From Candidatus Poribacteria bacterium (GTDB taxonomy: Bacteria; Poribacteria; WGA-4E; PCPOR2b), in assembly GCA_965222805.1 (NCBI GenBank), contig CBDCUX010000005.1:3108770-3172769 (forward strand): a stretch of 64,000 bases of DNA, read 5' to 3'. Shown here in pieces: positions 7,977 through 25,411 of the stretch. Position 1 is the stretch's first letter. Each line of letters begins with the position of its first letter. Made by a program: the position numbers and the translations under genes. The notes beneath the pieces are model-generated. The model saw only the letters and a program-made list of their open reading frames with translations, was not told the origin of the DNA and ran no database searches.

Positions 7977-8240
7977 GTGCCAACGGAAGAAGCCAGTGCC
8001 CGAACGCTGTTGGTTATTGTCAGCGTCATCGGAATTATTTTTACAATTGTAATGATCATCCTTTTCTTCAACGCAGCCCCTGCCCGTTCCGACATTCCAG
8101 ATCACCAGACTTACACAGATCCAGCGGCTTGTCTAAAGTGTCATCTTCGTGGAACAGAGGAATCGCCAACCATGCCACATCTCAACGTCGGTAACTGCCA
8201 TATCTGCCACGGGGTGGCGCAGGAAAAAGAGTCGAAATAA
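7977..8240 (+). CDS. Small membrane-anchored diheme c-type cytochrome
   Basis: N-terminal TM helix (LLVIVSVIGIIFTIVMIILFF) followed by two CxxCH motifs (CLKCH, CHICH). Confidence 0.45.
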   Translation: MPTEEASARTLLVIVSVIGIIFTIVMIILFFNAAPARSDIPDHQTYTDPAACLKCHLRGTEESPTMPHLNVGNCHICHGVAQEKESK

Positions 8241-8258
8241 CAAAACATCCTTATTTCC

Positions 8259-8783
8259 CTAGCGTCCGACCTCCCATGCTAGATGCTGCAACTCCGGTCC
8301 GATCAGTTTTTCCCACGCTAGCTGTACCGCAGCCGTTGAGCCGGGCGTCGAGATAACGATTTTCCCTTGGTACACGCCGGCGGTAGCACGCGATAACATC
8401 GCTGCCGCTCCGACTTGGTCGTAGCTAAACATTCGGAAGAGCTCACCAAAACCGGGTAGGGTTTTCTCTAAGGCTTGATCCAACACATCAAAGGTTGTAT
8501 CGCGTGGGGCGATGCCTGTGCCTCCGTTAAAAAGAATCATACGAGCGTCGCTTGCTGCAAATTCGTCCAGCACAGCTTTGACCTGATCCGGTTCATCTTT
8601 AATGATGCGATATCCCACGACCTGGTTTCCATCAGCCGCCAATTGTTCACGGAGGAATGCTGCGTTTTTATCTGTTTCCGGTGTACGTGTATCACTGACG
8701 GTAACGATTGCTACGAGCACCGGACCGTGTTCCGCAGCCATCTCCCGATGCTCCGCGGTGCTCACCGAAGTTTGTTCTGCCAT
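8259..8783 (-). CDS. Molybdenum cofactor biosynthesis protein MogA/MoaB family
   Basis: MoaB/MogA fold motifs ([12 protein letters not shown]..., GGTGIAPRD). ATG at 8783 with a GAGGAG RBS. Confidence 0.75.
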
Positions 8784-8877
8784 TTCTATTCTCCTCAAAA
8801 TTGGATACTGCGAAATTTATTTGAAAAATCCGATTGGTATAGGATATGCGAAACGTGATATATTGTCAAGATTAAAT

Positions 8878-9176
8878 GAGGGGTGTGCATACGTAGATAT
8901 CTTGATCATAATCGCATAATTTGAGCAGATTAATCCTAGTAGCTGTATATATACATTGCGCTCCGCTGGAGCGCGGGCATCCGCTGTATCGGCATTCTAT
9001 AGACATATCGCTCCTCTGGAGCGAAGATAGCCGTCGGGTCGTTGGGTTTTTTGGGTATTTGGTTTGCTGAAGATACGCCGGCTCGGTAGCTGCTTTGTTT
9101 GCTTATCCGTGTTTTCTGTGTAATCTGCTGAATCCGTGATTCAGACAATAATCATGCACACCCCTCAGATTAAATA
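8878..9176 (+). mobile_element. MITE-like non-autonomous element, copy A (~300 bp, 14-bp terminal inverted repeats tgaggggtgtgcat / atgcacacccctca)
   Basis: Near-identical to copy B at 12279..12577 (>95% identity). Carries internal palindromes (cgctccgctggagcg, gctcctctggagc, ctgaatccgtgattcag). No transposase is encoded. Confidence 0.6.
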
Positions 9177-10248: not shown

Positions 10249-11049
10249 TTATCTTTCGCGTGCTTTGATCAGTGCGCTCACACGGTTTGCATCAACTCCG
10301 TTTGTTGTAACACCACCACCTTTAATTGAGGTGCCAACGATAACGCCATCTGCGCACTGCAAAACTTCGGTGAGGTTATCGACCGTTACACCGCTTCCAG
10401 CGAAGACACTAGCTTGTGGAACCGCTGATTTCACAGATTTTAATTCACTAAGATCTGCACCTCTGCCCGTTGCGGTTCCCGTAACGATCAACGCGTCCGC
10501 AAGTCCGCGATGATACGTGTCCTCCGCACTCGCGAGGATATCGAACCGCGCAAGTGGCACCGCATGTTTCACGGCAATGTCGGCGAAAATTTTAACCTCA
10601 CTTTTGAGGGCGGATCGGTAGCGCAAGGTTTCGTGTGCCTTCCCTTGGATAATACCTTGGTCGGTGAGCATTGCGCCGGTGTGCACGTTGGCACGGATAA
10701 AGTTTGCGTTTGTAACCGTTGCGATTGCTATCGCCGATTTTGCGTCGTTACGCAGGACGTTGAGTCCGATCGGTGTTTTCGGATGGCGTTCTCGAATTTC
10801 GTTCGCAATGAGTGTTAGTGCTGCAACGGTATGGGGCTCGACACTATCCGGACAGAAGGGCACATCCCCATAATTTTCAACGATAACCCCGTCGATTCCG
10901 TTATCAATTAGTGCTCTTGCGTCTGAAAGGGCACGGGTGCGAATTTCATGGAGAGATTGGGTTGATTGGGGGCTGCCGATTAGCGGGGGTAGATGAATCA
11001 CGCCGATGATCGGTCTGGGATGATTAAAAAGCTGATTGGTTCCTTGCAT
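10249..11049 (-). CDS. BtpA/SgcQ family TIM-barrel protein
   Basis: N-terminus IIGVIHLPPLIGSP...GIDGVIVENYGDVPF is typical of the BtpA/SgcQ family. Confidence 0.6.
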   Translation of the reverse strand: MQGTNQLFNHPRPIIGVIHLPPLIGSPQSTQSLHEIRTRALSDARALIDNGIDGVIVENYGDVPFCPDSVEPHTVAALTLIANEIRERHPKTPIGLNVLRNDAKSAIAIATVTNANFIRANVHTGAMLTDQGIIQGKAHETLRYRSALKSEVKIFADIAVKHAVPLARFDILASAEDTYHRGLADALIVTGTATGRGADLSELKSVKSAVPQASVFAGSGVTVDNLTEVLQCADGVIVGTSIKGGGVTTNGVDANRVSALIKARER

Positions 11050-11167
11050 ATCCCGAAAATCTTTCGCTCGCAGGAAGATCTTACCCAGCTAGCACCGATG
11101 AAGTCCTAGACAACTTCGGCTAACTTCATATCAACTACGCCTGTCTCCTCTGGACTAATCGAGACTA

Positions 11168-11974
11168 TTACTGCAGATGGGACAACATTGCCAGCGGCGT
11201 TGTTGCAAGCAGACCCGCATCAATGGGAAGTAGCACGCCGGAAATCCAACGGGATTCATCGCTAGCGAGAAATAGCCCTGCCCACGCAATATCCCAAGCG
11301 GTGCCTTCTGTCCCCAAAGGACCTGATCGACGGCGGAGATCACGCAGTTCATCCGAGATGGTAGTCGTCATTGGGGCGTAAATGTGTCCCGGGGCGATGC
11401 AGTTGACCCGAATGTTATCCCGTCCGTGATGTACCGCCATATTGTGCGTCAAGGAGATCGCACCGCCTTTCGATACAGCGTAGGGGATGTTCTGCCAGAT
11501 ATTTGCTCGCAGTCCATCAATTGAAGCGATATTGATAATCGAACCACCACCTGCCTCAATCATCTTAGGAATGGCGTGCTTAGATGCCAGCATCATACCC
11601 TTGAGATTAACTGCCATCACATCATCCCAGACATCTGGATCTACATCAACGACCGTCCCTGCCCCGCCGATGGCGGCACTATTGAACAGGATATGCAACT
11701 CACCGTATCGCGCAACGGCTGCTTCAGCCATCGCTTGACAGTCATCATTTTGGGAGACATCGGCGACGAAAATTGACGCCTCCCCGCCTTCTTCCTCAAT
11801 AGCAGCAAGAGTTTTCTCCGCATTTGAGAGATTTCGGTCTACCAGCAAGACCTTGGCACCCTGCCTAGTAAAGAGGATTGATGTCGCCCGTCCAACGCCA
11901 TCCACCGGGGTACGGCTCCCCGCTCCGGTAACAATGACAACTTTGCCTGCTAACCGTGTCCCACTGTTTTCCAT
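11168..11974 (-). CDS. Short-chain dehydrogenase/reductase (SDR) family oxidoreductase
   Basis: TGAGSRTPVDGVGRA Rossmann motif, a NSAAIGG region and a catalytic YxxxK context. Confidence 0.8.
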   Translation of the reverse strand: MENSGTRLAGKVVIVTGAGSRTPVDGVGRATSILFTRQGAKVLLVDRNLSNAEKTLAAIEEEGGEASIFVADVSQNDDCQAMAEAAVARYGELHILFNSAAIGGAGTVVDVDPDVWDDVMAVNLKGMMLASKHAIPKMIEAGGGSIINIASIDGLRANIWQNIPYAVSKGGAISLTHNMAVHHGRDNIRVNCIAPGHIYAPMTTTISDELRDLRRRSGPLGTEGTAWDIAWAGLFLASDESRWISGVLLPIDAGLLATTPLAMLSHLQ

Positions 11975-12278
11975 TATTGCTTGACTTCCTTTGATTTTAT
12001 TTTCAATCTATTGAATCTTGTTTAGCGCATATAGGGCAAGCGTGCTGCCTCCCTCTACACTATAGAATGGGAAGGTTTCACCTCAAGGCGTCTATCATAC
12101 AGATGATTGGGTATCACGTCAACGGAAAAATTACGCCGCCCAATACCCTCGTCGATGAACCGCTTGACAAGTCGAGGAGTTATGAACAATAATGAGTTAG
12201 AAATGTGTTAGACACACTTACAAACATGCAACATGTGAACAGATATTGTATCTTCTCGTCGATAATCCAGTATATAAA

Positions 12279-12577
12279 CTGAGGGGTGTGCATACGTAGA
12301 TATCTTGGTCATAATCGCATAATTTGAGCAGAGTAATCCTATTAGCTGGATATATACATTGCGCTCCGCTGGAGCGCGAGCATTGGCTGTATCGGCATTC
12401 TATAGACATATCGCTCCTCTGGAGCGAAGATAGCCGTCGGGTCGGTGGGTTTTTGGGTATTTGGTTTGCTGAAGGTACGCCGGCTCGGTAGCTGCTTTGT
12501 TTGCTTATCCGTGTTTTCTGTGTAATCTGCTGAATCCGTGATTCAGACAATAATCATGTACACCCCTCAGATTAAAT
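12279..12577 (+). mobile_element. MITE-like element, copy B (direct orientation relative to copy A)
   Basis: Same TIRs and internal palindromes as copy A. The ORF-track peptides MSESRIQQITQKTRISKQSSYRAGV... inside both copies are repeat artefacts. Confidence 0.6.
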
Positions 12578-12589
12578 GAGGGAATTACT

Positions 12590-13312
12590 ATGAAAATATT
12601 GCTGACAGGTGCAGCCGGCTTTGTGGGACGCGCTGCAGTCGATATCTTGAGCCAAGACCATGAAGTGACTGCTTTTGACATTCGCCCGGTGGTTGACTAC
12701 GACAACGCCGTTCAAGGTGATGTACTTGACTATACAACGCTTGAAGCCGTAATGGCAGACCATGATGCAGTTGTCAATACGATTATGGCACCCAATAGTA
12801 GTTACGGTATGGACGGTCCGGGCTTTGATATTAATGTACGGGGTATGTTCAACCTTCTTGAAGCTGCGCGTGTATGCCAGATCCAGCGATTCGTCCATAC
12901 ATCCAGTGGGGCGGTCCATGGAGGTTATCCGGAGGACACTTTCCTCACGTATGATCTATATCCGCTCAAAGCCTCCAGTTCCTATGATCTTTCTAAGGCA
13001 CTTCAGGAAGAGCTCGCCCGAAATTATCACGAACAACACGGTCTGTCCATCGCATGTATTCGACCGTGGGGCATCATTGATTCAGATGAAATGGTGACGA
13101 CCGATGGCCATCCTGTCAACGACTATTATTATGGCACGATTGATAGACGAGATGTTGCGTCCGCGCTAAAATGTGCCCTAGAGACACCGGATATTAGCTA
13201 CGATTGTTTTTATATATTTTCCACACCGGGGGGCTATAAAAAAGGAGACGTGGCACGGACAGAAAAGCTGCTGGGTTGGGAGCCGGTTTATCGATTTGAT
13301 GCGGACCTTTAA
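12590..13312 (+). CDS. NAD(P)-dependent epimerase/dehydratase-like short SDR
   Basis: MKILLTGAAGFVGRA Rossmann fold. Paralogous to the product of 36224..36982. Confidence 0.7.
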   Translation: MKILLTGAAGFVGRAAVDILSQDHEVTAFDIRPVVDYDNAVQGDVLDYTTLEAVMADHDAVVNTIMAPNSSYGMDGPGFDINVRGMFNLLEAARVCQIQRFVHTSSGAVHGGYPEDTFLTYDLYPLKASSSYDLSKALQEELARNYHEQHGLSIACIRPWGIIDSDEMVTTDGHPVNDYYYGTIDRRDVASALKCALETPDISYDCFYIFSTPGGYKKGDVARTEKLLGWEPVYRFDADL

Positions 13313-13603
13313 TCTAAGCCCGGCAAGGAGTCGCTTGAATTAAAAAACCCTTGAAATCTGGTGAGGGTTGTGAGAAAATCATTGGTATCTAAGGCACGAA
13401 TTTAGAACCTGTTTTAAAAAGCAAGGAATGATCCCACGGTGCTATGGATTTGTCAATCCACAGCGCGCCACATCGCAAGGTAGGTGTTGGGGTTCCCAAC
13501 CCATCGGGCTTGGAAACCAAGCCCCTACGATTGACCTGACACGGTTTGCTGAATATGGTGATAATATGCCGTTGAATAGTGGACGCCCTTCTGGGTTGTG
13601 GAA

Positions 13604-13635
13604 GAAACCGAGTTTTGAAGAAAAAACTCGGTTTC
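13604..13635. other. Perfect 13-bp stem / 6-nt loop hairpin (gaaaccgagtttt-gaagaa-aaaactcggtttc) in intergenic region
   Basis: Seen directly. There is no U-tract after it on either strand, so it is not a canonical intrinsic terminator. Confidence 0.4.
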
Positions 13636-13729
13636 AGGGCAAATCACTTTATCCAAAATGACTTTTCAAACAGGCTCTTAGGGTTGTTTTACTAACAACA
13701 AATACCAAATTTAGTTTGGAGGGATGTAA

Positions 13730-14752
13730 ATGGGCAACATAGCAACAAACAACTTGGGAAGTACAGGGGTTCCCTTAACCCAATTAGGTTTCGGCGGGGC
13801 ACCGCTAGGAGATCTCTTTGAGATTATCAGCGAAACGCAAGCGCAGACAACCCTGCAAGGGGCATGGGATGCCGGTTTGCGCTATTTCGACACGGCACCG
13901 TTCTACGGCTACGGGAAGAGTGAGCATCGTTTCGGACATTTTCTCCGCCAACAGCCACGTAATGAATTTGTGCTTTCTACCAAAATCGGACGTGTGCTAC
14001 GAGCGACGCGTGACCCCGATAATTTCGACCAAGGGATGTGGGCTGGGGGACTGCCTTTCGATCTTTATTTTGACTATAGCTACGATGGGATCATGCGTTC
14101 CTTTGAAGACAGTCTTCAGCGGCTCAGTTTGAATTCTGTCGATCTCCTTCTTATCCACGATCTCGACCACCTATTTCACGTGAACGATACACGGATTAAC
14201 GCTCACATGATCCAGCTCGGCACTAGCGGTTGGCGTGCACTTGAGGAACTTCGTTCCAGCGGGCAGATCAAAGGGGTGGGGGCTGGCGTGAACGCATTGG
14301 GCACCATCCCGCGCTTTTTGGAGATGGTGGACCTCGATTTCTTTATCGTTGCGATGCCGTATACGTTGTTAGATCAGGATGTTTTAGACGCTGAATTTCC
14401 ACAGTGCGAGGAACGCGGCGTTGGTGTGGTAATTGGCGCGGTATTCGCCTCTGGCATTCTGGCGACAGGCGCGACGGAAAATGCGTATTACGCGTATGCC
14501 CCAGCACCCCCTGAGATATTGGAAAAAACGCGGCGCATTCAAGCTGTCTGCGATCGACATAGTGTGCCGCTACGAGCAGCGGCGTTACAGTTTCCGCTAG
14601 CGCACCCAATCGTCGCTGCAGCGATTCCGGGTGGTCTCACCCCAGAGCACGTTCAATCGAATGTCGAAATATTTGAACATCCCATCCCTGCGGATCTTTG
14701 GAGCGAGCTAAAGGCGGAAGGGCTGCTGCGTGAAGACGCACCCACCCCCTAA
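13730..14752 (+). CDS. Aldo/keto reductase family oxidoreductase
   Basis: LGFGGAPLGDLF...FDTAPFYGYGKSE are hallmark AKR motifs. RBS GGAGGG. Confidence 0.85.
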   Translation: MGNIATNNLGSTGVPLTQLGFGGAPLGDLFEIISETQAQTTLQGAWDAGLRYFDTAPFYGYGKSEHRFGHFLRQQPRNEFVLSTKIGRVLRATRDPDNFDQGMWAGGLPFDLYFDYSYDGIMRSFEDSLQRLSLNSVDLLLIHDLDHLFHVNDTRINAHMIQLGTSGWRALEELRSSGQIKGVGAGVNALGTIPRFLEMVDLDFFIVAMPYTLLDQDVLDAEFPQCEERGVGVVIGAVFASGILATGATENAYYAYAPAPPEILEKTRRIQAVCDRHSVPLRAAALQFPLAHPIVAAAIPGGLTPEHVQSNVEIFEHPIPADLWSELKAEGLLREDAPTP

Positions 14753-14892
14753 GTTTTTGTCAATTATATCTTGGCTTCCCACAAAAGTGAGTGGTAGAGT
14801 CGTTCGTTAGTCGATTGTAACTGGTCAATCATTCACCTTTCCTCTCATACACAGGCTAGATAAATCGGGCAGGTTGTGTTGCTGCGTAAGTT

Positions 14893-15768
14893 CTATACTT
14901 GCTGCTCTGTTGAGAGAATCCGAAACGGTGGATTGGAGGTTTCCCATTCTTGTAGTGATCGATAGAGTTGGGTTGATAAGAAATAAACGTATTCATACCC
15001 GGCTCTCAGAATTCTCTCAAGATCTTCCGGTTTGACTTCATTAGCATTATTTGTACCTAAAACACTGCGTAAACCAAATGACAGAATACAGACTAAATCA
15101 TGCCCACAGCAAATATCCCAAGAGTTGTGTTTTGGATCTGTGAGTTCATCAATCTTATTCTGCAAATCATTATCACTAAGATCATGTCTGAGCGACTTGT
15201 TTTTGACTTCTGGAATCAATTTACTGATATTGATATGCAGTGTATTACGGTCAATAAACTCCCTGAAACTAATACCTTCAAATTTCAGAGAGAGATTGTT
15301 TCGTTGAGAAACCCATCTTAAGTATCCAATCGGGCCAGCAGCAGTCAGCAGCGCTTGACGAACGTCCATTTTACTGTTTTCGATAAAACTGGCTATTTTC
15401 TTTTCAGAGCCAAATTCGTCAAGTAACTTTTCCAATGAAGGAGACTCAAGAAGCATCGTTTCTAAGTCATGTGTATCAGTTATAAACAGATTTGGACATG
15501 TTGGGTCCAGTTCCTCAAGTCGCCAAAAATCAGCATCAACGATGGCCACAACTCCCTCAACGTCAGCATCTTCGAGAATTTTGAGTGCTGCTAGCGCATT
15601 ATCTTTGTTATGTGCTGGCGTAATTTTGGTCTGCTTGGAGTCAACAAGGCGTTTGTAAACTCGGAAATCGGCGGTCTGACCTTCAACAATCAAGAAGGTC
15701 CCCCGGAATTGAGTGCGAGCCATTCGGATTCCGTTGGCAACATCATCTGCTGTGATGTAATTCCTCAT
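14893..15768 (-). CDS. DUF4435/OLD-family TOPRIM-like nuclease, PARIS AriB-like
   Basis: 291 aa. A TOPRIM-type glutamate (FLIVEGQTADF) and a DxD motif (VAIVDADF) lie ~50 aa apart. Its start ATG overlaps the upstream ATPase stop (ATGA). The region is low-GC (~38-40%). Confidence 0.55.
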   Translation of the reverse strand: MRNYITADDVANGIRMARTQFRGTFLIVEGQTADFRVYKRLVDSKQTKITPAHNKDNALAALKILEDADVEGVVAIVDADFWRLEELDPTCPNLFITDTHDLETMLLESPSLEKLLDEFGSEKKIASFIENSKMDVRQALLTAAGPIGYLRWVSQRNNLSLKFEGISFREFIDRNTLHINISKLIPEVKNKSLRHDLSDNDLQNKIDELTDPKHNSWDICCGHDLVCILSFGLRSVLGTNNANEVKPEDLERILRAGYEYVYFLSTQLYRSLQEWETSNPPFRILSTEQQV

Positions 15769-17150
15769 GAAGTCTCTGGTCCTTTCAATTCAACAGTCAG
15801 ATCCCAGCGATCATGAATAATTTGAGGTGAATGGGTCGCGATGAGCACGTCAAAGGAAGCAAGTTGAGTTATCTTTTGTAAATCTTGCAAAAATTGTTGC
15901 TGCCACGCGACATGTAATGAGAGTTCAGGTTCGTCAATGAGGATGAGGGAATTAGGGCGTACTTCGAACAGCAATTGGTACAACAGAACTAATTCATGTT
16001 GTTCGCCAGAAGATAACGAGGTTACAGGAAGAGGCTTATCGCCCCTAGTTAAAAAAGAAAATCCTTCTTGTCTCGAAATCGTCATTCTATTGTATCGGAA
16101 GCGTTCATTTATGATTTGCTTGAAGAGATCAATTTTATTCGTAATTTCATCAAGCACACTTAGTTTTTCTTCTACATCTTGAACGTAAACAGATAAAACT
16201 TCCTCTGTGTTTTTACTGATTTGTTGGATTGGCAGATCCATATCTCGTTCTTTATCTAAAAGTCCTACCTCCTCGAGTCTAGAACGCTTCTCTTCCAGTT
16301 CGTCTAGTTTGTTTTTAATTTCATCTTCGGTAAGTTCAGAATGCCCCATCTGCTGCACTAACCGAGCTGGAAATGTTCTGTCCAACGATTGAGATAAAGC
16401 CGCCGATTCTGCCAGTTTTTCTTGAATCTTTTCGGCTAACTCCTTTGAATATTCTTTGACAGTTGGCACCCATGCTATCATTGGCGGTCTGCTGTGAACA
16501 AATCTGTTTCTGGTCATTCTTCGACTAGAAATATTCAATAGTCGTTGCGTTTCAATGAGATGAATTTTGGTCGATTCTTTAACTTGAATCCACCAGCCTG
16601 GTTCTTTAAGCCTGAATGGTAAACGAGGTCCAAAACGATCTATAACTTCATCAAGATATAGAATCTCACCATCGTCGGCTATCCATTGCCTGGTTTCTAT
16701 CCGTTCTAAGCCCGTCACCTCTTCTATCATTGACAAAGGAGTCACATCTTCATTGATCTGGCCTAAGATGAAGGAATCTGTTTGTCCACTGTTCTCCAAA
16801 AAGTTGATGATGATTGGTGTTTTTGGCAGATGTGCACGTTTTTCAGTCACATTATCATCGGGATCCAGATTATCCCATAAAATCATTTGTTGAGTGCTGG
16901 ACTCAGATATTTCATCAATCCATATTGCACTCCCTTCCTCAAATCGAACCTCAAATTTACGAAAAGGGATGCTACGAAATTGTGCAAATCTACTGTTAAA
17001 TAAGCCGTTAAGCATCTGTAGCAAAATTGTTTTTCCAAAACCATTTGGACCGTGAATAATTGTTATGCGTTCTTCAGTATTCAACGATATCGTATGGTCA
17101 AATATTCCAAACAGACCTTCAACGATTATTTCTGTAATCCGCATTTTCAT
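15765..17150 (-). CDS. ABC/SMC-like AAA15/AAA21-type ATPase, PARIS AriA-like
   Basis: Walker A GPNGFGKT near the N-terminus, a long E/K/L-rich helical insert, then C-terminal Walker B LILIDEPELSLH and an ATHSPQI switch. Start taken at the ATG at 17150 (MKMRITEI) with a GAGGTG RBS. Confidence 0.6.
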   Translation of the reverse strand: MKMRITEIIVEGLFGIFDHTISLNTEERITIIHGPNGFGKTILLQMLNGLFNSRFAQFRSIPFRKFEVRFEEGSAIWIDEISESSTQQMILWDNLDPDDNVTEKRAHLPKTPIIINFLENSGQTDSFILGQINEDVTPLSMIEEVTGLERIETRQWIADDGEILYLDEVIDRFGPRLPFRLKEPGWWIQVKESTKIHLIETQRLLNISSRRMTRNRFVHSRPPMIAWVPTVKEYSKELAEKIQEKLAESAALSQSLDRTFPARLVQQMGHSELTEDEIKNKLDELEEKRSRLEEVGLLDKERDMDLPIQQISKNTEEVLSVYVQDVEEKLSVLDEITNKIDLFKQIINERFRYNRMTISRQEGFSFLTRGDKPLPVTSLSSGEQHELVLLYQLLFEVRPNSLILIDEPELSLHVAWQQQFLQDLQKITQLASFDVLIATHSPQIIHDRWDLTVELKGPETS

Positions 17151-17268
17151 CACCTCAACGAATGAGCTACTAATGGTAAAGTAATTTTAGAGTAGGTTCG
17201 CGCTATGTTTCGACAAAGAACACTCCAAAGTACATGCTTTTCTTGATTCGTGAACATACATATGTATA

Positions 17269-17297
17269 ATTATACATTTACCGCACCCAAATTTCAA
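17269..17297 (-). promoter_or_regulatory. Sigma70-like promoter for the ATPase/TOPRIM operon (-35 TTGAAA, 17-nt spacer, -10 TATAAT)
   Basis: The minus strand reads aggTTGAAAtttgggtgcggtaaatgTATAATtatacatatgta. A palindrome tacatatgta lies just downstream. This is ~110 nt upstream of the ATPase start. Confidence 0.35.
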
Positions 17298-17447
17298 CCT
17301 AAGGACAATGGGAGCAATCAAAGATATATCAATGGCTTGCTCCCACTCACATGAAGGATTTTGGTATGTAGTCTGAGAGCCACAAGAAGCATCTCCGCGG
17401 CGATGCGATAATTCCCTCCTCGTCCGCCTTCTGTGAAATTCGAGACA

Positions 17448-18914
17448 TCAACTGAACCGAATCGAATAGAGGTCTGCATCCTTCAACAGAAATCGTAGAC
17501 GGATGGGCTGCCCCGACAGCTGGCTCACATCAGTTCCATGCTTCCAAGTTACTATCCGTTCGAGGTCATCACCGAAGACTTCTGGGCAATCGTCCAATCC
17601 AAAGCCGGGGATGGCATCGCCTGACGCATCCTGAATTTCGATCTGAACGCTACCCACCCCAGAAGTTGAGAAGTTAATGATGAGACGATCTCCTTTAAAG
17701 GTTAGAGGCTTTGTTACGAATTCCCCACCGCTCAACGGCGCCTGCATTGAGACAAATCCATCAATTCGGAGCGTATAACGCCGCCAGCGACAATCGTCCC
17801 CTTGATGCGAGTCTTCACTCGCATAGACGGAAATCTCGTCGGGTGCACCGTCAATGTGCGATTTTGTCTCGACCAATCCCCAATTCTGATAGTTATCGCC
17901 GTAGAACCAGTTACCTCTCAACCGTAAGCCGGGACGGATAAACGATTCGGGCCAGATGTTGAAATGATCCCCATCTCGACTGCTCATGAACATTCCATCG
18001 GTCACGGCTGTCCCCTCACGCTCGGACACATGACCGCGGAGGCGGCGATACTCAAGCTCTGGCAAGGCTTTCGTCGATTCCGTCCACCCGCGATCGGTGT
18101 ATCGGGTTGGAAAGCCGAGGAAGATATGTGGGGCGCGATAGTATGGGATAATCTGATTCGTGTATAGCTCGCTGACACGGCTGGGCGAGTATTCCAGCCA
18201 CTCAGGCTCAGACCAGTTGAGGAAGTCGTTCGATGTCCCGGTGCGGATGTCGCGTCCCTCACGGAAATCGCGATGGTATTCACGGTATTCGCCGCGTACC
18301 GTATCCCAAAAGGCGAGGTTCTGCGAGTCAAACGCACCTTTGGTGATTACAGGTTCATCGTTCATGAGGGACCAGTGGATACCATCAGGAGATTTGAACG
18401 CATATAACGCTCTATCACCTGAGCCGAGTGCCTTGTACTTTTCGTCCGGCTTGCAATCGGGATTTTCGTCCTTAAAAGGCGCGAAGTTGTGTGATCCAAT
18501 CCCTTCCCAGATGATGTTGTTCCGCTTCCCACCATCGAACGCAATCAAGCCAAGTTCTGGCTTTGTCCAGTGTATCCCATCGCGGCTTTCAGCGTAGCAA
18601 ACTACCTGCGGGTGGGGATCGTCAAAGCCCTCAGTTGTATAAATGACGTGACTTCCTCGGTAATACATCCGGTAAAGATCGCCATCTTGAAACACAGTTT
18701 TATAGCCGCAGGTGCTACCCTCCCACGGATTATCGTAAACACAAGCAACGTCTTGAGGTTGGGGATGGTGTAACCGTTGCGTTGCACCAGATATTTCATC
18801 AATCAGATAATCGTCAACGAACAGTTCCAGCCGATCGCCGATGTCAATGGGTGAAACCGCTTGTGTAATTACATCTCTTGATAGCGTAAGCATTGCGGAA
18901 GCGATAGATATCAT
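17448..18914 (-). CDS. Secreted hypothetical protein (possible glycoside-hydrolase/BNR-like fold)
   Basis: 488-503 aa. The second ATG (MISIASAMLTLS) has an AGGAGG RBS and a signal-peptide-like N-terminus. No confident family assignment. Confidence 0.55.
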   Translation of the reverse strand: MISIASAMLTLSRDVITQAVSPIDIGDRLELFVDDYLIDEISGATQRLHHPQPQDVACVYDNPWEGSTCGYKTVFQDGDLYRMYYRGSHVIYTTEGFDDPHPQVVCYAESRDGIHWTKPELGLIAFDGGKRNNIIWEGIGSHNFAPFKDENPDCKPDEKYKALGSGDRALYAFKSPDGIHWSLMNDEPVITKGAFDSQNLAFWDTVRGEYREYHRDFREGRDIRTGTSNDFLNWSEPEWLEYSPSRVSELYTNQIIPYYRAPHIFLGFPTRYTDRGWTESTKALPELEYRRLRGHVSEREGTAVTDGMFMSSRDGDHFNIWPESFIRPGLRLRGNWFYGDNYQNWGLVETKSHIDGAPDEISVYASEDSHQGDDCRWRRYTLRIDGFVSMQAPLSGGEFVTKPLTFKGDRLIINFSTSGVGSVQIEIQDASGDAIPGFGLDDCPEVFGDDLERIVTWKHGTDVSQLSGQPIRLRFLLKDADLYSIRFS

Positions 18915-19263
18915 TGGTAAATACCCTCCTTGTTGATTTTCGATGATTCCGTAGGTCATTCATTGGTGTCCCGACGTGCTGTCAGTTCACCGGACATTGT
19001 AACAGGAACACGCCGAAAAAGGGATCGAAAAGCGAAACCTCTGTCACGATCCAGCCTAAGAACAACCGTTTTTTCCACAAAGATCTTTGCTGTTGACCTA
19101 GGTATAGCAAAGGGGTAAAATGGCTATTGTATATCTCCAAAGTAGGCGCGGAAAATCCAACCGCGGATTTGACAGATGGTGTAGATTTGTCTGATTCTCC
19201 TTACCGCCTGTCCCGTCCGTGAAATCCGCCAATCCCCGAACAGATTTTTTATAGGAGTGTAAT

Positions 19264-20037
19264 ATGTCCACTATCAAACGACCCGCACCTGAAATCATCG
19301 AAGCATTGTCTGAGTTGGGAACCGATGCCGTGACCTCCACCATGGAAGCGTTGGGTGTGCGCCGAACCTTTATGGAGGGTCCCATCGCTCGTGTGCCCGG
19401 GAGTAAAATCGTTGGACCCGCACTGACACTCCGCTTCACACCACAGCGCGAAGATCAGATGCGGGGCTATCAGATACCGGGGGCATCCGCTGAAGAATCG
19501 GAACCGGAAGGTGAGGAGGCCGGTGAGAAAACCTCTGCCTTGTGGGAGGTGATGTTTGAAGTGCAAACTGGGGATGTGATTGTGGTTGATGGCAGAGGCG
19601 ATCTCGCCACCGGCTGCTTCGGAGAGATGTTGATGACCTACTTCCAAGCGCAGGGCGGGGCTGGTGTCGTCATAGACGCCGGCATCCGGGATTCTGTGCC
19701 GATCTTTCAAGAACTGAAGGTGCCGGTCTGGTCAACGGCTGTGACCACCGGCGGGGCGGGGCATCTGAACCTCTTTCCCGCTGACTTCAACCTCCCCATC
19801 GGTTGCGGCAAGGTTTTGGTCAATCCCGGTGACATTATCATGGCGGACGATGGTGGGGCTATCGTTGTGCCGCCTCGGCTGATACCTCGCATCCTCGACA
19901 TCGCCGGTGAGCGTGAGGAGCATGAGGTCTTTGTCCGTATGAGACTACGGGAGGGCGGGGATCTGCGGAAATATTATCCGTTCAACGACGAAGGTCGAAA
20001 AGAGTATGAGGAGTGGTTGGCTGCTCAGAAGGGGTGA
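19264..20037 (+). CDS. RraA family protein (RNase E regulator / 4-hydroxy-4-methyl-2-oxoglutarate aldolase-like)
   Basis: RraA-like GDVIVVDGRGDLATGCFGEMLMTY and a GAGVVIDAGIRD core. Confidence 0.7.
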   Translation: MSTIKRPAPEIIEALSELGTDAVTSTMEALGVRRTFMEGPIARVPGSKIVGPALTLRFTPQREDQMRGYQIPGASAEESEPEGEEAGEKTSALWEVMFEVQTGDVIVVDGRGDLATGCFGEMLMTYFQAQGGAGVVIDAGIRDSVPIFQELKVPVWSTAVTTGGAGHLNLFPADFNLPIGCGKVLVNPGDIIMADDGGAIVVPPRLIPRILDIAGEREEHEVFVRMRLREGGDLRKYYPFNDEGRKEYEEWLAAQKG

Positions 20038-20101
20038 GTTGGTAGGAGGTCAAATTGAAGGAAGGTGTTCGTGGCTTTCCGTTTTTAATGAGAGGAAAAC
20101 T

Positions 20102-22858
20102 ATGAATATTTTTAGGGTCTACTGCTTGTGCGCTTTTATCGCACTCTGTAACTGGGGCGGTGTTGCGTTCGCTCAAGTTGTCGAGATACCCGACCCGAAC
20201 CTCAAGCAGGCCGTCCGAGAAGCGCTCACACTGAACGATCAAATCCCAATTACCCAGCAAGAAATGTTAAAACTTGAACGGTTGGAAGCACCAGATAGAC
20301 AGATAGGGGATTTAACAGGACTAGCGTATGCCCTCAATTTGAAATGGATACGCCTTCAGAGAAATAACATAAGTGACATTAAGCCATTATCTGAATTGAA
20401 TCGGTTAGAAGGTGTAGGACTCTGGGTAAATCCTATTTCCGATTTGTCTCCATTAGCAAATCTTACCAATTTAAGATTCCTTGATCTTGCAATTTGCCAT
20501 ATTTCAGACCTTACTCCGCTTACCAATTTAACGCAGCTAGAATGGCTGACACTTGAGTGGCAAAGAAACGACAGAATAGCAGACATCAAGCCACTAGCAA
20601 ATTTAACAAAACTCCGCCATTTGAGGTTGAATGGTAATCGGATTGTTGATATAAGTCCCCTTGCCAATCTAGTCAACCTCGAAATGCTTAGACTCGATAA
20701 TAACCAGATTATTGATGTCAGCTCACTTGCAAACTTAATCATGTTGAAAGAATTGTGGATTGACAACAACCGGATCGTCGATATCAGTTCACTTGCTAAT
20801 TTAACACAGCTTACCGATTTGACACTTGCTAACAATGCAATAGCAGACTTTCAACCGCTCTTTGGATTGAATCTTCAAAATGTAGATATGGACATCCATA
20901 AGTTACAGGAATTTGCCTCAATTGATGTGAAGATACCCGATTTAAATTTAGAACGCGCCGTCCGAGAGGAACTAGGTCTGCAGGCCGAAACACCTCTTAC
21001 ACAGTTAGTAATGAACCAGTTAACGCGGCTAGATGCCCCGGAGAAACAGATAAAAGATTTAACAGGACTAGAACACGCTACTAATTTGAAATGGATCGAT
21101 GTTCATCAAAATAACATAAGCGTCCTCAAGCCATTGGCTAAACTAACTCAGTTAGAACGCTTAGGACTCTGGGTAAATCCTATTTCCGATTTATCTCCGC
21201 TAGCTAATCTCACTCAATTAAGAGGTCTTGACCTCGGCGGTTGTGACATTTCAGACATTACTCCACTTGCCAACCTAACGCAGCTGGAATGGCTAACCCT
21301 CCCTTGGAATTATTTGATTGAAGACATCACCCCATTGGGGAATCTAACGCAACTCACTCGATTAAATCTGAGTGGCAATCGGATTGTTGATATTACCCCT
21401 CTTGCCAATTTAACTATGTTGGACGAACTGCGAATCGATAACAATCGAATTGTCGATTATAGTCCACTTGATGGACTATCCTTGATCCGCCTTGACCGCG
21501 ATGAGGTTTGTGAATTACCGGATCTCCCTATTGCAGGACGCATTAAAAATCGGAGTTTCCCCTCTATTTTCCAAGCGTGGGGTGGAGAAATCATAAACCG
21601 ACCCACATTGTCCCGCGAAGGTGGACTGGTACATCACGATTTGTATTGGCATGGTCCGGGCTTGTTTGGTCTCCATTGGCAAGAGACTTCGCAAGGTTAT
21701 CAACTCACGGGCAATATTGAGCAAGCAGAGCAAAAACGGGACATGCTGCTTGCCAAAAATCCCAATATGCTTTTCTTCGCTGAGATTCGCCTAAGAGATG
21801 CAGGTTATACCCAGTATCCTGAAGATTGGCCCTACTGGTTAAGGGATGAGGAAGGGAATTTGGTTGGAAATGCAGACTTAATTGACTCGGTTTTCCTAAT
21901 TGACTTCACGCTACAAGGAGCACAAGACATCGTTGTGCAACAGGCGATTGCTGTGGCGAAATGTGGATTGTTTGACGGAATTTTCTTTGATTGGTGGAAC
22001 GAGAACAGGCTCACCCTTGCAAATTTTGACTGGTCAGAGCATTACAGCACACCAGAAGAAGAACTGCAGATAAAACTCTCGTTGATTCAGCGCATCCGTG
22101 TCATGGTCCCTGATGATTTTCTAATCATAGGCAATAATAATCAGTACAGACTTCCAATAACCGGCCCCTACATGAATGGCAGTTTCATGGAATCTTTCCA
22201 AGACTACGGGGGCGGTTATACCCCTGCGCGACTGGCGGAGATTGAAAGTAACCTCCTGTGGTTAGAAGAAAACCTAAAAGAACCCCAAATCAACTGCCTT
22301 GAAGGATGGGGCATCCCGACCGAACCGCCAAATAGCCCGAATAATAAAAGATGGATGCGTCTCTTTACTACAATGAGCCTCACTCTCTCCAACGGATATG
22401 TGCTTTATAACATCGGTTGGGACCGAAGTAAACCTGACCCACCCAATCACAATCATTACTGGTATTCATTTTGGGACGCCGATCTCGGACAACCTGTGAG
22501 TCCGACCGCTCAACCGTATCAGAACGTCGAAGGGGTGTATATCAGGGAGTTCACCAATGGTTGGGCGGTGTATAATCGGAGTGGGCAAGCACAAGCCATC
22601 ACACTGCCGTCATCTGCGAGCTCCGTATCTGATAGGGGAAACAACGCTGCGTCCCTGACTCACCTGCTCCCCGACCTTGATGGTGAAATCTATCTCGCGA
22701 CCCGAAGTTTCGCTGATGTCAACAACGATGGTGCCGTCAATATCTTGGATTTAGTGATGGTTGCTAATGGCTTTGGTCAATCCGCCCCGGACCCCAACGG
22801 TGATGGCGTGGTCAATATCCTTGATTTAGTCTTTGTCGCCCAGCAGTTTAGTCAGTAG
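20102..22858 (+). CDS. Secreted leucine-rich-repeat (internalin-like) protein with C-terminal double dockerin module
   Basis: Signal peptide, then two blocks of ~22-aa LRRs (LxxLxxLxLxxNxIxDIxPLAxL). The C-terminus DVNNDGAVNILDLVMVANGFGQSAPDPNGDGVVNILDLVFVAQQF is a dockerin type-I duplicated Ca-binding repeat. Confidence 0.75.
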   Translation: MNIFRVYCLCAFIALCNWGGVAFAQVVEIPDPNLKQAVREALTLNDQIPITQQEMLKLERLEAPDRQIGDLTGLAYALNLKWIRLQRNNISDIKPLSELNRLEGVGLWVNPISDLSPLANLTNLRFLDLAICHISDLTPLTNLTQLEWLTLEWQRNDRIADIKPLANLTKLRHLRLNGNRIVDISPLANLVNLEMLRLDNNQIIDVSSLANLIMLKELWIDNNRIVDISSLANLTQLTDLTLANNAIADFQPLFGLNLQNVDMDIHKLQEFASIDVKIPDLNLERAVREELGLQAETPLTQLVMNQLTRLDAPEKQIKDLTGLEHATNLKWIDVHQNNISVLKPLAKLTQLERLGLWVNPISDLSPLANLTQLRGLDLGGCDISDITPLANLTQLEWLTLPWNYLIEDITPLGNLTQLTRLNLSGNRIVDITPLANLTMLDELRIDNNRIVDYSPLDGLSLIRLDRDEVCELPDLPIAGRIKNRSFPSIFQAWGGEIINRPTLSREGGLVHHDLYWHGPGLFGLHWQETSQGYQLTGNIEQAEQKRDMLLAKNPNMLFFAEIRLRDAGYTQYPEDWPYWLRDEEGNLVGNADLIDSVFLIDFTLQGAQDIVVQQAIAVAKCGLFDGIFFDWWNENRLTLANFDWSEHYSTPEEELQIKLSLIQRIRVMVPDDFLIIGNNNQYRLPITGPYMNGSFMESFQDYGGGYTPARLAEIESNLLWLEENLKEPQINCLEGWGIPTEPPNSPNNKRWMRLFTTMSLTLSNGYVLYNIGWDRSKPDPPNHNHYWYSFWDADLGQPVSPTAQPYQNVEGVYIREFTNGWAVYNRSGQAQAITLPSSASSVSDRGNNAASLTHLLPDLDGEIYLATRSFADVNNDGAVNILDLVMVANGFGQSAPDPNGDGVVNILDLVFVAQQFSQ

Positions 22859-22903: not shown

Positions 22904-23002
22904 TGCGTTGGGTTTCACTATCGTTCACCCCAACCTACGGGCTGATAAATTGTCTGAATCAGGATTTTCAGGATTTAAGGATTAACAAGATAAGGAGTGC
23001 CC

Positions 23003-25411
23003 ATGAAATTAACGTTTGCACGTTTCACTCATCATGTTTCACGCTGTCTTTTCATTCTCTTCATCGTGGCAATCCTTCTCATCCCCCATGCCTCTGCTCA
23101 AGTTGTAGAGATCCCCGACCCGAACCTCAGACAAGCTATCCGAGAAACCCTACAACTTCCAGATGGTGTTCCTATCACAGAGCAGGATATGCTAGGATTA
23201 ACGGGCTTCGCTGCTGAGGATGCGGGAATCGAAAATATCACCGGTTTAGAATATGCTCATAATCTAAGAAGTCTATTTCTTCGGAACAATCCTATTGAGG
23301 ATGTCATGCCGCTTGCGAATCTCACACAACTTGAGCTTCTGCACCTCATTAGCGTTCCCATGGAAGATCTGACTTTCCTTAAAGATCTCACGGAATTAAG
23401 GGAACTTTATTTGGCTTATTGTCAGATAACAGACATCACGCCGATTCAGAATCTGACAAAACTGGTCCTTCTAGATCTCAGGGTGAATCGGATTATGGAT
23501 GTCGGTCCGCTTGCAAATTTAGCTTTGTTGCAAACACTGTGGATTGACAGAAATCGGATTACCGATTTTAGTCCACTTTTAGGGCTTTCTCTGACAGATT
23601 TTCAGTATGATGAGGTATGTGCAATTCCAGACCCTCCGATTCGAGATCGCATCTCCAATCGGAATTTGCCATCTATTGTCCAAGGGTGGGACAATGAAAT
23701 ACTGAATCTGCCTGCGTTATCGTATCAGGACCGTCTCGTTTATCATGATCTGATTTGGTCTGATTTCCTTTTTGACCTCCGTTTTCGACAGACCCCCCCA
23801 TGGTCTGAATTGATAGGGGATGTCAAATACGCAATAGCAGAACGAGAGAAACTACTTGCGAAGAATCCCAATATGATTTTCCTTCGAGAAATACGGTTAC
23901 ATACAGCAAATCCGAGTCATTATCCAGAGGATTGGCCCTATTGGCTAAGAGACGCAGATGGAAACCGTATATCGGGGGATAACGTTCTTGCGAATCAATA
24001 TTTGGTTGATTACAGGCTAAAAGAGACTCAAGATATTCTGGTTCAACAAGCGATTTCGGTGGCAAAGTGTGGTCTATATGACGGCATCATCTTTGATGTT
24101 TGGAGCGAAGTTCTGGTTTTAATTCAAGATCCTGGTATGCCGACCTATCAAGAACACACACCGGAATATGCTCAGGAGGTTGAGATAGAGCGCACGGCAC
24201 GGACCTCCATTCTACGCCGGATTCGTGAGGCGGTGCCGGACGATTTTCTCATTATATGCAACAATTGGCGCGAGATGCCGTTTTCAGCCCCATATATCAA
24301 TGGCAGTTTTATGGAGACCTTCCGTGACCTCGACATAGGTTATTCAGATGCGAGGCTTGCTGCGATTGAAGATGCGCTCGTTTGGCACGAAGCAAATGTG
24401 AGATCCCCCCAAACTAACATCTTGCGGGCGGAGGGGATTCCGACCGAACCGTTCGATAGTTCAAACAATCGCCGGTGGATGCGTTTATTTACCACGATGA
24501 GTTTCATCTTTTCTGATGGATATGTTTTGTACACTATTGGAGGATTTAGTCATAAACACTACTGGTATTCGTTTTGGGATGCGGATCTCGGTCAACCTGT
24601 CGGTCCCACTGCACAACGCTATCAAGAGGATATTGAGAGCTTGTATATCAGAGAGTTCACGAATGGCTGGGCGGTTTATAACCGGAGTGGGACAGCGCAG
24701 GAGATTTCGCTCACGGAGGAGGCCATGGGCGTGTCTAGTAATCAGGCAGGAAGAACGCATCAGCTAGCAGATTTGGACGGTGAAATCTATCTCAGGGCAG
24801 GCACAAGACCTGCCCCTACAGATCTAAATGGGGATGGTATTGTGAACGTTCTTGACCTGATTTTGGTCGCCCAACACTTCGGCACGACTAAGGGCGACAT
24901 TAATGGAGATGGGATTACTAACATCTTAGATTTAATCCTAGTTGCGCAACATCTCGGTGAAACAAGCACCCCTGCTGCACCTGCTGCGCTTCACGTTTCT
25001 CTCAGTCCGGAAACTGTTCAGAAGTGGATAGATATGGCGCACGCTCAAAACGACGGGTCAGTTATCTTTGCCCAAGGCATAGCGATGCTTGAAAGGCTGC
25101 TTGCGTTAATGATTCCAGACAAGACCGTGCTCCGCGCAAACTACCCGAATCCATTTAATCCAGAGACTTGGATCCCGTATCATCTTGCTAGCGAGACAGA
25201 AGTGCGGATTAGCATCTATGACCTCCGAGGTGTGTTGGTACGCCAATTCAATATAGGGCATCAAAAGGCGGGATACTACACCGATCGGAGGAAGGCAGCG
25301 TATTGGGATGGTCGTAACGAAATCAGGGAACCGGTGAGCAGTGGTATATACTTCTACACATTGACCACTGACGATTACACCGGAACCCGTAGGATGGTTA
25401 TCCTCAAATAG
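23003..25411 (+). CDS. Secreted LRR protein paralog with dockerin module and C-terminal T9SS/FlgD-Ig-like sorting domain
   Basis: Same N-terminal signal peptide and AQVVEIPDPNL motif as the paralog. Dockerin repeats TDLNGDGIVNVLDLILVAQHFG...DINGDGITNILDLILVAQHLG. C-terminal NYPNPFNPETWIPYHL...ISIYDLRGVLVRQF...GIYFYTLT...RRMVILK matches the Por secretion tail. Confidence 0.75.
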   Translation: MKLTFARFTHHVSRCLFILFIVAILLIPHASAQVVEIPDPNLRQAIRETLQLPDGVPITEQDMLGLTGFAAEDAGIENITGLEYAHNLRSLFLRNNPIEDVMPLANLTQLELLHLISVPMEDLTFLKDLTELRELYLAYCQITDITPIQNLTKLVLLDLRVNRIMDVGPLANLALLQTLWIDRNRITDFSPLLGLSLTDFQYDEVCAIPDPPIRDRISNRNLPSIVQGWDNEILNLPALSYQDRLVYHDLIWSDFLFDLRFRQTPPWSELIGDVKYAIAEREKLLAKNPNMIFLREIRLHTANPSHYPEDWPYWLRDADGNRISGDNVLANQYLVDYRLKETQDILVQQAISVAKCGLYDGIIFDVWSEVLVLIQDPGMPTYQEHTPEYAQEVEIERTARTSILRRIREAVPDDFLIICNNWREMPFSAPYINGSFMETFRDLDIGYSDARLAAIEDALVWHEANVRSPQTNILRAEGIPTEPFDSSNNRRWMRLFTTMSFIFSDGYVLYTIGGFSHKHYWYSFWDADLGQPVGPTAQRYQEDIESLYIREFTNGWAVYNRSGTAQEISLTEEAMGVSSNQAGRTHQLADLDGEIYLRAGTRPAPTDLNGDGIVNVLDLILVAQHFGTTKGDINGDGITNILDLILVAQHLGETSTPAAPAALHVSLSPETVQKWIDMAHAQNDGSVIFAQGIAMLERLLALMIPDKTVLRANYPNPFNPETWIPYHLASETEVRISIYDLRGVLVRQFNIGHQKAGYYTDRRKAAYWDGRNEIREPVSSGIYFYTLTTDDYTGTRRMVILK

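Follow-up and report, generated by a model that had tools for sequence, protein, structure and literature searches.

PARIS (for phage anti-restriction induced system), which is present in 5.2% of genomes (PMC9122126), forms class 4 of the OLD-family scheme (PMC11464382). In Escherichia coli the trigger of PARIS is the DNA mimic Ocr (PMC11464382, PMC12409363), and Burman et al. (PMC11464382) report Glu26, Asp30, Asp88, Glu90 and Glu122 of the nuclease AriB, together with Lys39 and Glu393 of the ATPase AriA. The AriB catalytic site is reported to find its nearest structural analogue in RNase M5 (PMC12409363). Here we describe a pair of overlapping genes, ariA and ariB, within 64,000 nucleotides (nt) of contig CBDCUX010000005.1 from a Candidatus Poribacteria bacterium, a stretch referred to in its entirety as the window. 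The pair is very probably an intact two-gene PARIS module in the Candidatus Poribacteria chromosome, its function being predicted from homology. The two genes and their junction are located as follows, lengths of proteins being given in amino acids (aa):

15765..17144, minus strand: ariA, an ATP-binding cassette (ABC)-type (AAA_15/AAA_21) ATPase of 459 aa, from the ATG at 17144 (MRITE...)
14893..15768, minus strand: ariB, a DUF4435 Toprim nuclease of 291 aa
15765..15768, minus strand: ATGA shared by the two genes, TGA being the stop of ariA and ATG the start of ariB, read from the sequence and present in every related locus

The published MacSyFinder rule for PARIS specifies adjacent genes, one scoring at least 32 bits against AAA_15 or at least 27 bits against AAA_21, the other at least 27 bits against DUF4435 (PMC9122126). 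The genes described here overlap by 4 nt and score 78.2 bits against AAA_15 (E = 1.2e-21), 68.9 bits against AAA_21 (1e-18) and 52.3 bits against DUF4435 (8.5e-14; cut-off 27) in Pfam. In PADLOC the top models were AriA for the ATPase (5.7e-26) and AriB for the nuclease (1.4e-25); the only other match to the nuclease was the fused AriAB model, while the lesser matches to the ATPase comprised ATPase-Toprim_I-B and PD-T4-4_A (1e-12 to 4e-14). Pfam, PADLOC and NCBIfam revealed neither an HNH or helicase domain nor any other effector domain in the gene pair, and no specific NCBIfam model fired on either protein. AriA and AriB matches co-occur on contigs, and both genes are intact and under purifying selection. 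The 4-nt overlap implies that ariA and ariB are translationally coupled, as read from the sequence, and the two genes are predicted to be co-transcribed.

The predicted fold of AriB, modelled with a predicted local distance difference test (pLDDT) score of 92, is consistent with this assignment. Foldseek searches with the model returned the AriB chains 8ux9_A and 8v46_D as the top two matches, both over the full length and with a probability of 1.00, and generic Toprim domains trailed these chains at E > 0.1. In the model Glu29 ends strand 1 and Asp78-x-Asp80 ends strand 3, which is the canonical Toprim arrangement. Glu29, Gly30, Asp34, Lys55, Asp80, His100, Asp101, Glu103, Glu118 and the Cys220/Gly222/His223/Asp224 motif are invariant in 28 homologues, among which Asp78 is at least 90% conserved; the acidic residues terminate strands 1 and 3 or follow strand 4. 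Judged by motif order and fold, the E. coli residues Glu26, Asp30, Asp88, Glu90 and Glu122 correspond to Glu29, Asp34, Asp78, Asp80 and Glu103, respectively. The bridge between the two sets was an AriB from Pseudoalteromonas, which is of the E. coli type and matches the AriB in the PDB at 6e-70. When the AriB-family profile was aligned with this protein by hhalign, the motifs VEGRxD, CDREF and GHSLEN fell on VEGQTAD, VDADF and THDLET.

AriA displays the motifs expected of a split ABC ATPase: a Walker A motif GPNGFGKT (Gly32 to Thr39, including Lys38), a signature motif LSSGEQ (Leu377 to Gln382), a Walker B motif LILIDEPE (Leu400 to Glu405), in which Glu405 is the presumed catalytic glutamate, and an H-loop ATHSP (His438). 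Gly35, Gly37, Lys38, Thr39, Leu377-SSGEQ, Asp404, Glu405 and His438 are invariant in 30 homologues, and Lys39 and Glu393 of E. coli AriA correspond to Lys38 and Glu405. In a phmmer search of the PDB the best match was the 464-aa E. coli AriA (8ux9_B/8v45; 1e-16), followed by PtuA at 4.5e-7, and the alignment to 8ux9_B spans both ATPase lobes, including LIDEPE and THSP. Long helices at residues 228-348 and a disordered loop at residues 80-107 accompany the split ABC head in the AlphaFold model (pLDDT 77). Foldseek searches of the PDB with this model returned AriA chains as 16 of the 18 top matches, ranks 1-15 included, with E-values from 1e-17 (best 1.4e-17) to 3e-13 and template modelling (TM) scores of 0.5-0.6; the first fold other than AriA appeared at 4e-11, SMC heads and PtuA following at 4e-11 and weaker. 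An earlier note on this DNA, made from the letters alone, had proposed an AriA/AriB module from two overlapping genes, one a split Walker A...Walker B ATPase and the other a protein with a Toprim-like glutamate and a DxD motif. That proposal is borne out at each level: the open reading frames (ORFs) lie on the minus strand and share the ATGA at 15765-15768, the four ATPase motifs are all present, IVEGQTAD and IVDADF occur in the 291-aa protein, the hidden Markov models (HMMs) named above match both proteins and no HNH or helicase domain emerged in the 291-aa product, the scores pass the published rule, PADLOC names both partners and the solved AriA and AriB chains are the best structural matches.

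By homology to the system of E. coli B185 (PMC11464382, PMC12409363), AriA would form a scaffold, or oligomer, that sequesters AriB in an inactive state, within a complex of AriA6-AriB3 type. A phage-encoded protein would bind AriA in a step that depends on ATP, upon which AriB would be released. The freed nuclease would dimerise and, acting as a two-metal Toprim RNase, would cut specific host transfer RNAs (tRNAs), so that translation would halt and the infection would abort. An Ocr-type trigger is not assumed for the Poribacteria protein because its AriA loop differs from the basic pore loop to which the acidic Ocr is described as binding. The loop, which contains …LWDNLDPDDNVTEKRAHLPK…, is acidic or mixed in charge and belongs to a variable part of the protein:

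16666..16908, minus strand: hypervariable ariA segment, residues ~80-160, defined by entropy, indels, pLDDT and the ratio of non-synonymous to synonymous divergence (dN/dS)

Column entropy in residues ~80-160 is 0.9-1.35, compared with 0.06-0.7 elsewhere in AriA, and indels of up to 15 residues occur; within the loop itself (residues 80-107) pLDDT is below 50 and the indels differ among alleles. The dN/dS ratio of the segment was 0.5-0.55 in two of five comparisons between related loci (those with contigs L001 and L086, introduced below), compared with 0.09-0.18 for the C-terminal remainder of the protein in all five. Residues ~80-160 are proposed to be the trigger-sensing surface. Such hypervariability fits the report of Burman et al. 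(PMC11464382) that pore residues are poorly conserved. AriB also evolves rapidly, and may in this way track tRNA targets or tRNA decoys of phages.

Several observations weigh against reading the pair as PARIS. No AriB match came up when the PDB was searched by sequence, whether by phmmer or with a profile built from 28 sequences, and the identity of the protein to the solved AriB from E. coli is no more than 13-14%, at a TM-score of ~0.5. The hhalign bridge alignment is weak (E = 0.33, probability 0.2) and serves as a residue guide, not as proof of homology, so that the correspondence of the AriB residues rests on motif order and fold. PADLOC does not discriminate well between the ATPase, taken alone, and the PtuA of Septu (5.7e-26 for AriA versus 2.7e-23 for PtuA). 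Poribacteria are uncultured, and the defence role and the cleavage of tRNA are predicted by analogy with homologues. A scan of viral contigs found no relative of this AriB subfamily, whereas E. coli PARIS is often carried on satellites and prophages.

The similarity to PtuA raises the question of whether the ATPase is a Septu-like or retron-effector-like PtuA with a non-canonical partner. Many PtuA HMMs score close to AriA on this protein, and its next neighbours in structure are PtuA and the retron ATPases, but AriA chains lie ahead of PtuA by more than eight orders of magnitude in Foldseek E-value, and the locus contains no HNH protein PtuB, no reverse transcriptase and no non-coding RNA (an Rfam scan of the window gave no match), the partner being a DUF4435 protein; an identity of this kind is extremely improbable. 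It is likewise very unlikely that the pair represents another ABC ATPase and Toprim system of the OLD family, such as class 1 OLD, Gabija, AbiL or MADS3-4. Although an ATPase of the AAA_15/21 type and a nuclease of the Toprim type are common to OLD-family systems (PMC11464382), and the ATPase does match ATPase-Toprim_I-B and PD-T4-4_A at the levels given above, the nuclease matches only DUF4435/AriB, with no match to Toprim_Old, RloB or DUF4276 in Pfam or PADLOC. Furthermore, the two activities are encoded by separate genes with no GajB-like helicase as a neighbour, and PARIS chains are the best match for both structure models.

A different view would be that the pair is a selfish addiction module, resembling a toxin-antitoxin (TA) system, or a decaying relic, in either case having lost its role in phage defence. 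Consistent with this view, the AAA_21 annotation is that of an AbiEii/type IV TA toxin domain, AriA has been named ‘antitoxin’ by some PDB depositors, ariB is followed by no evident intrinsic terminator, and two of the related contigs carry damaged or interrupted loci: ariB is without its 3' third in L088, and in L083 an element resembling a miniature inverted-repeat transposable element (MITE) lies between the promoter and ariA. In the window, however, both ORFs are intact, the catalytic residues are conserved, dN/dS is well under 1 and the promoter and ribosome-binding site are kept, and deletion of either E. coli gene is non-toxic, unlike the situation in a classical TA system (PMC9122126). 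We thus attach little likelihood to the addiction or relic explanation, and the PARIS assignment is retained in what follows.

The gene pair constitutes an insertion that is present in some Poribacteria genomes and absent from others at the same position:

14767..17430, no strand assigned: inserted cassette of ~2.66 kb, GC content 0.406, delimited by alignment of filled and empty sites, with junctions accurate to about +/-3 nt

The cassette lies between two convergent genes, encoding an aldo/keto reductase (AKR; 13730-14752, plus strand) and a 503-aa protein (17448-18959, minus strand), and replaces ~90 nt of ancestral spacer that included a bidirectional terminator hairpin. The empty site is seen in 10 Poribacteria species representatives, in which the AKR and 503-aa genes are adjacent, convergent and 115-350 nt apart, no AriA or AriB match occurs at the site, and the spacer retains the bidirectional terminator, a conserved hairpin of sequence GAGACCGAGTTTTTGnCAAAAACTCGGTCTC with T-runs after it. 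The filled site is found in the window and in six Poribacteria contigs (L001, L082, L083, L084, L086/L087 and L088) with the gene order RraA-like, ~489-aa protein, ariA, ariB and AKR; the window and L001 share both junctions by alignment, and the other five contigs have the same gene order. In a more distant relative from another organism, contig L085 of a sponge-metagenome assembly, a 61%-identical pair is kept together with the same 4-nt overlap in an unrelated context of sugar-metabolism genes. The cassette is thus a long-standing present-or-absent insertion at one fixed site.

The composition of the two genes marks them as foreign. The GC content is 0.395 for ariA and 0.413 for ariB, and GC at third codon positions (GC3) is 0.346 and 0.373, respectively, whereas the remaining 44 genes in the window average 0.511 +/- 0.034 for GC and 0.538 +/- 0.055 for GC3. 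Of the 46 genes, none has a lower GC content than these two (z = -3.4 and -2.9). The low GC content that had been remarked upon in the earlier note is therefore confirmed, for third codon positions as well as for overall composition, and the description of the pair as a horizontally acquired islet holds in so far as it is a non-core insertion; it fails as regards a recent one-off event, as seven or more Poribacteria contigs carry the cassette at this one position. Of the neighbours then proposed, the AKR is supported (Pfam Aldo_ket_red on 94%-identical orthologues), while the label ‘secreted hydrolase’ for the 503-aa protein is unconfirmed, this protein having no match in Pfam or PADLOC. The AKR orthologues at 84-95% identity all derive from Candidatus Poribacteria metagenome-assembled genomes, which places the window in a Poribacteria chromosome, and the 503-aa protein is ~90-97% identical across Poribacteria. 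An AriB identical to that of the window is on record from a contig of 6.76 Mb.

No vehicle for the cassette was evident. Integrase or other mobility genes were absent from the window locus and from the related filled loci, no tRNA gene was found in the 64-kb window, and neither direct nor inverted repeats bound the cassette; a transposon or MITE as the vehicle was rejected on the last of these grounds. The locus likewise differs from a mobile-element hotspot of the P4/P2 type, with its core-gene flanks and no tRNA target, repeats or viral relatives. The ariB stop codon is overlapped by a 14-mer, TAGNANTTACGCAG, that has four matches compared with 0.13 expected, two of the four being inside paralogous leucine-rich-repeat (LRR) genes; it is unexplained and does not constitute evidence for a mobile vehicle. 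At the empty AKR/503-aa sites of contigs L002 (~11040-11330) and L009 (~11035-11300) there is a different insert of ~230 nt with short internal palindromes, the ends of which are TAGGACTTACGCAG... and ...TGCGTAACTCCTA. The 14-mer over the ariB stop codon, located at 14882-14895 of the window, resembles these ends and is also present in L001.

The evolutionary history of the locus was explored through Nei-Gojobori comparisons between the filled loci of the window, L001, L082, L083 and L084, the close window-L082 pair being left out. In this five-locus set synonymous divergence (dS) of the three flanking genes is 0.36-0.60, with non-synonymous divergence (dN) of 0.012-0.048 and dN/dS of 0.03-0.11. 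For ariA the corresponding values are 0.10-0.23, 0.018-0.035 and 0.11-0.28, and for ariB 0.36-0.59, 0.10-0.13 and 0.21-0.33. By these sequence comparisons ariA is younger than the host split among the five loci. The dS of ariB is like that of the flanks, and its protein evolves three to four times faster than the flanking proteins. A comparison of the window with L086 reveals a different relationship: flanking dS is 0.29-0.35 with 95-98% aa identity, while for ariA dS is 0.49 with 78% identity and for ariB 0.40 with 82%. As the L086 flanks are nearer to the window but its ariA is far more diverged, the genealogy of ariA is not that of the flanks, and one ariA allele is older than the host split. 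Sliding-window comparisons with L001, L083 and L084 give nucleotide identities of mostly 90-99% for ariA and mostly 85-93% for the flanks, with 77-85% over the 3' half of ariB. The identities of AriA and AriB to the window proteins are also discordant across contigs, being 92% and 79% on one and 75% and 82% on another. These data show that ariA and ariB have different evolutionary histories, neither of which follows that of the flanking genes.

In a neighbour-joining tree of the flanks, filled and empty genomes are interspersed; the tree is star-like and carries no support values, and the argument is consequently based on the incongruence of pairwise dS and not on topology. The insertion would seem to be old, empty and filled alleles having coexisted since, and homologous recombination through the conserved flanks appears to have passed alleles, or parts of them, from one lineage to another. 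Burman et al. (PMC11464382) found that ariA and ariB co-evolve between clades; the shuffling within a clade described here is on a finer scale and does not contradict that conclusion. It is conceivable, though on balance doubtful, that the AKR/503-aa site is a long-lived immune locus with trans-species polymorphism, recombining alleles and separate diversification of sensor and effector. An empty allele with the ancestral terminator may persist alongside many deeply divergent PARIS alleles, which species-level lineages may swap by homologous recombination through the flanks. The sensor gene ariA and the effector gene ariB may be exchanged, or may evolve, independently, diversification possibly being concentrated in the AriA loop, as a putative sensor, and spread across AriB, where it may reflect specificity for tRNA targets or decoys. 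If true, this would represent a pattern like that of major histocompatibility complex or R genes in a bacterial abortive-infection system not carried by any mobile element.

Candidate expression signals of the cassette are located upstream of ariA:

17297..17269, minus strand: promoter-like sigma-70 site TTGAAA-17-TATAAT, from a consensus scan (11/12), ~118 nt upstream of the ariA start
17153..17156, minus strand: GAGG ribosome-binding site, 8 nt upstream of the ATG at 17144, invariant in five loci
17389..17406, minus strand: weak terminator-like hairpin GCATCGCCGCGGAGATGC with a T-rich tail, from a pattern scan, at the upstream edge of the cassette

Five Poribacteria loci share an identical -35 hexamer, and their -10 element is TATAAT or TATCAT. 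The strong sigma-70 promoter that had been attributed to the pair can accordingly be recognised as a promoter-like site, on the strength of its consensus and conservation. The longest ariA ORF extends over 15765..17153 on the minus strand (462 aa, GTG start), and the in-frame starts upstream of the ATG at 17144 are an ATG at 17150 and the GTG at 17153. The true start is most likely the ATG at 17144, giving 459 aa, because GAGG lies 8 nt upstream, the upstream ATG is lost in two loci (L083 and L084, where the sequence is ATAACAATG) and gene callers agree, having picked MRITE in all relatives. The hairpin at 17389..17406 is directly beyond the stop codon of the 503-aa gene, and its sequence is near-invariant in five loci. 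It might insulate the cassette, a tentative suggestion as free-energy folding does not favour the structure (z = 0.29). Neither an intrinsic terminator nor a structured 5' untranslated region was found (fold z-scores -0.8 to +1.3), and the stretch where ariB and AKR converge (14753-14892), the side on which the insertion removed the ancestral bidirectional terminator, shows no detectable hairpin of the terminator type. With that terminator gone and none detectable in its place, transcripts of ariB and AKR may read into each other.

Further variation surrounds the locus. In L083 the MITE-like element, which is ~290 nt long (~8157-8450), could affect expression from its position between the PARIS promoter and ariA. 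Two MITE-like elements of ~290 nt occur in the window, at 8877-9167 and 12280-12569, with the inverted sequence TGAGGGGTGTGCAT at their ends (four termini found, 0.56 expected), and the L083 copy is related to them. In L088 (6001-6700, the same site) the segment missing is the equivalent of 15232-14850 of the window, the lost 3' third of ariB including the CxGHD motif, and ariA contains an 18-aa insertion in its variable region; because neighbouring genes are also split, the ariB loss may reflect either genuine decay or a fault in the assembly. The spacer on the far side of AKR is variable too. In the window it is a gap of 418 nt only (13313-13729); in L082 it contains a sulfatase (12104-13711), in L083 (12337-13105) and L084 (12174-14616) a PIN-domain protein and a small ORF in a TA-like arrangement, and in L084 also transposases. 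The window ORFs at 20006-22858 and 22997-25411 are tandem paralogues with LRR, GHL15 and dockerin domains, one of which also has a Por_Secre_tail; they contain internal repeats of 275 and 96 nt, have a below-average GC of 0.45-0.47 and vary in copy number and size between Poribacteria loci. PADLOC identified no second defence system among ten other window ORFs. The 499-aa product of 38017-39516 (plus strand) weakly matched RT-Protease_XI models (1e-9), over their protease part alone and with no reverse-transcriptase part, and is probably just a protease domain.

The locus adds no new kind of system, PARIS being common, and DefenseFinder and PADLOC should call the pair directly. What is new is the host, Candidatus Poribacteria, and a cassette that replaces a conserved bidirectional terminator between convergent core genes. 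The assignment extends a mechanistically solved system to an uncultured phylum of sponge symbionts, with an AriB that is only ~13% identical to the characterised protein. This AriB subfamily is apparently widespread, with no fewer than 966 matching proteins at E <= 0.001, those named including proteins of Desulfobacterales and Ktedonobacteraceae; the named matches to the partner AriA include Acidobacteria, Cyanobacteria and a Methanosarcinales archaeon. The divergent subfamily is therefore a candidate for asking whether PARIS senses other triggers and cuts other tRNAs. The filled and empty alleles, in combination with the mismatch in divergence between ariA, ariB and the flanks, form a natural data set from which the persistence and exchange of a cassette lacking a mobile element can be studied.

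The closest described system is that of E. coli B185 (PDB 8UX9, 8V45-8V49; Rousset 2022, Burman 2024, Deep 2024), with which the Poribacteria pair shares the gene order ariA-ariB. AriA is 464 aa in E. coli and 459-462 aa here, both proteins having a split ABC head with a helical insertion, and E. coli AriB is likewise a DUF4435 Toprim protein, of ~300 aa. The Walker A lysine, the Walker B glutamate and the five Toprim acidic residues of E. coli PARIS are all kept. The sequences are, however, very distant, AriB being 13-14% identical and AriA aligning in the ATPase lobes only. The acidic or mixed loop region also contrasts with the basic Ocr-binding pore loops of E. coli AriA, which suggests that the trigger probably differs. 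In addition, the Poribacteria pair occupies a fixed chromosomal site between core genes and not a P4 satellite or prophage hotspot, and its host belongs to an uncultured sponge-symbiont phylum. Outside PARIS, the OLD-family proteins P2 Old (class 1) and GajA of Gabija (class 2) also combine an ABC ATPase with a Toprim nuclease for phage defence, but in these the ATPase and a Toprim_Old domain are fused in one polypeptide, in contrast to the two genes and DUF4435-type Toprim described here. The PtuA ATPases of Septu and retrons share the AAA_15/21 ABC ATPase and an inserted helical domain; the partner in Septu, with or without a retron, is the HNH nuclease PtuB, whereas here it is a DUF4435 Toprim protein. 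RNase M5, finally, has a two-metal Toprim active site in common with AriB, but is a monomeric enzyme of housekeeping ribosomal RNA maturation with no ATPase partner, while the pair described here is dispensable, as empty sites exist.

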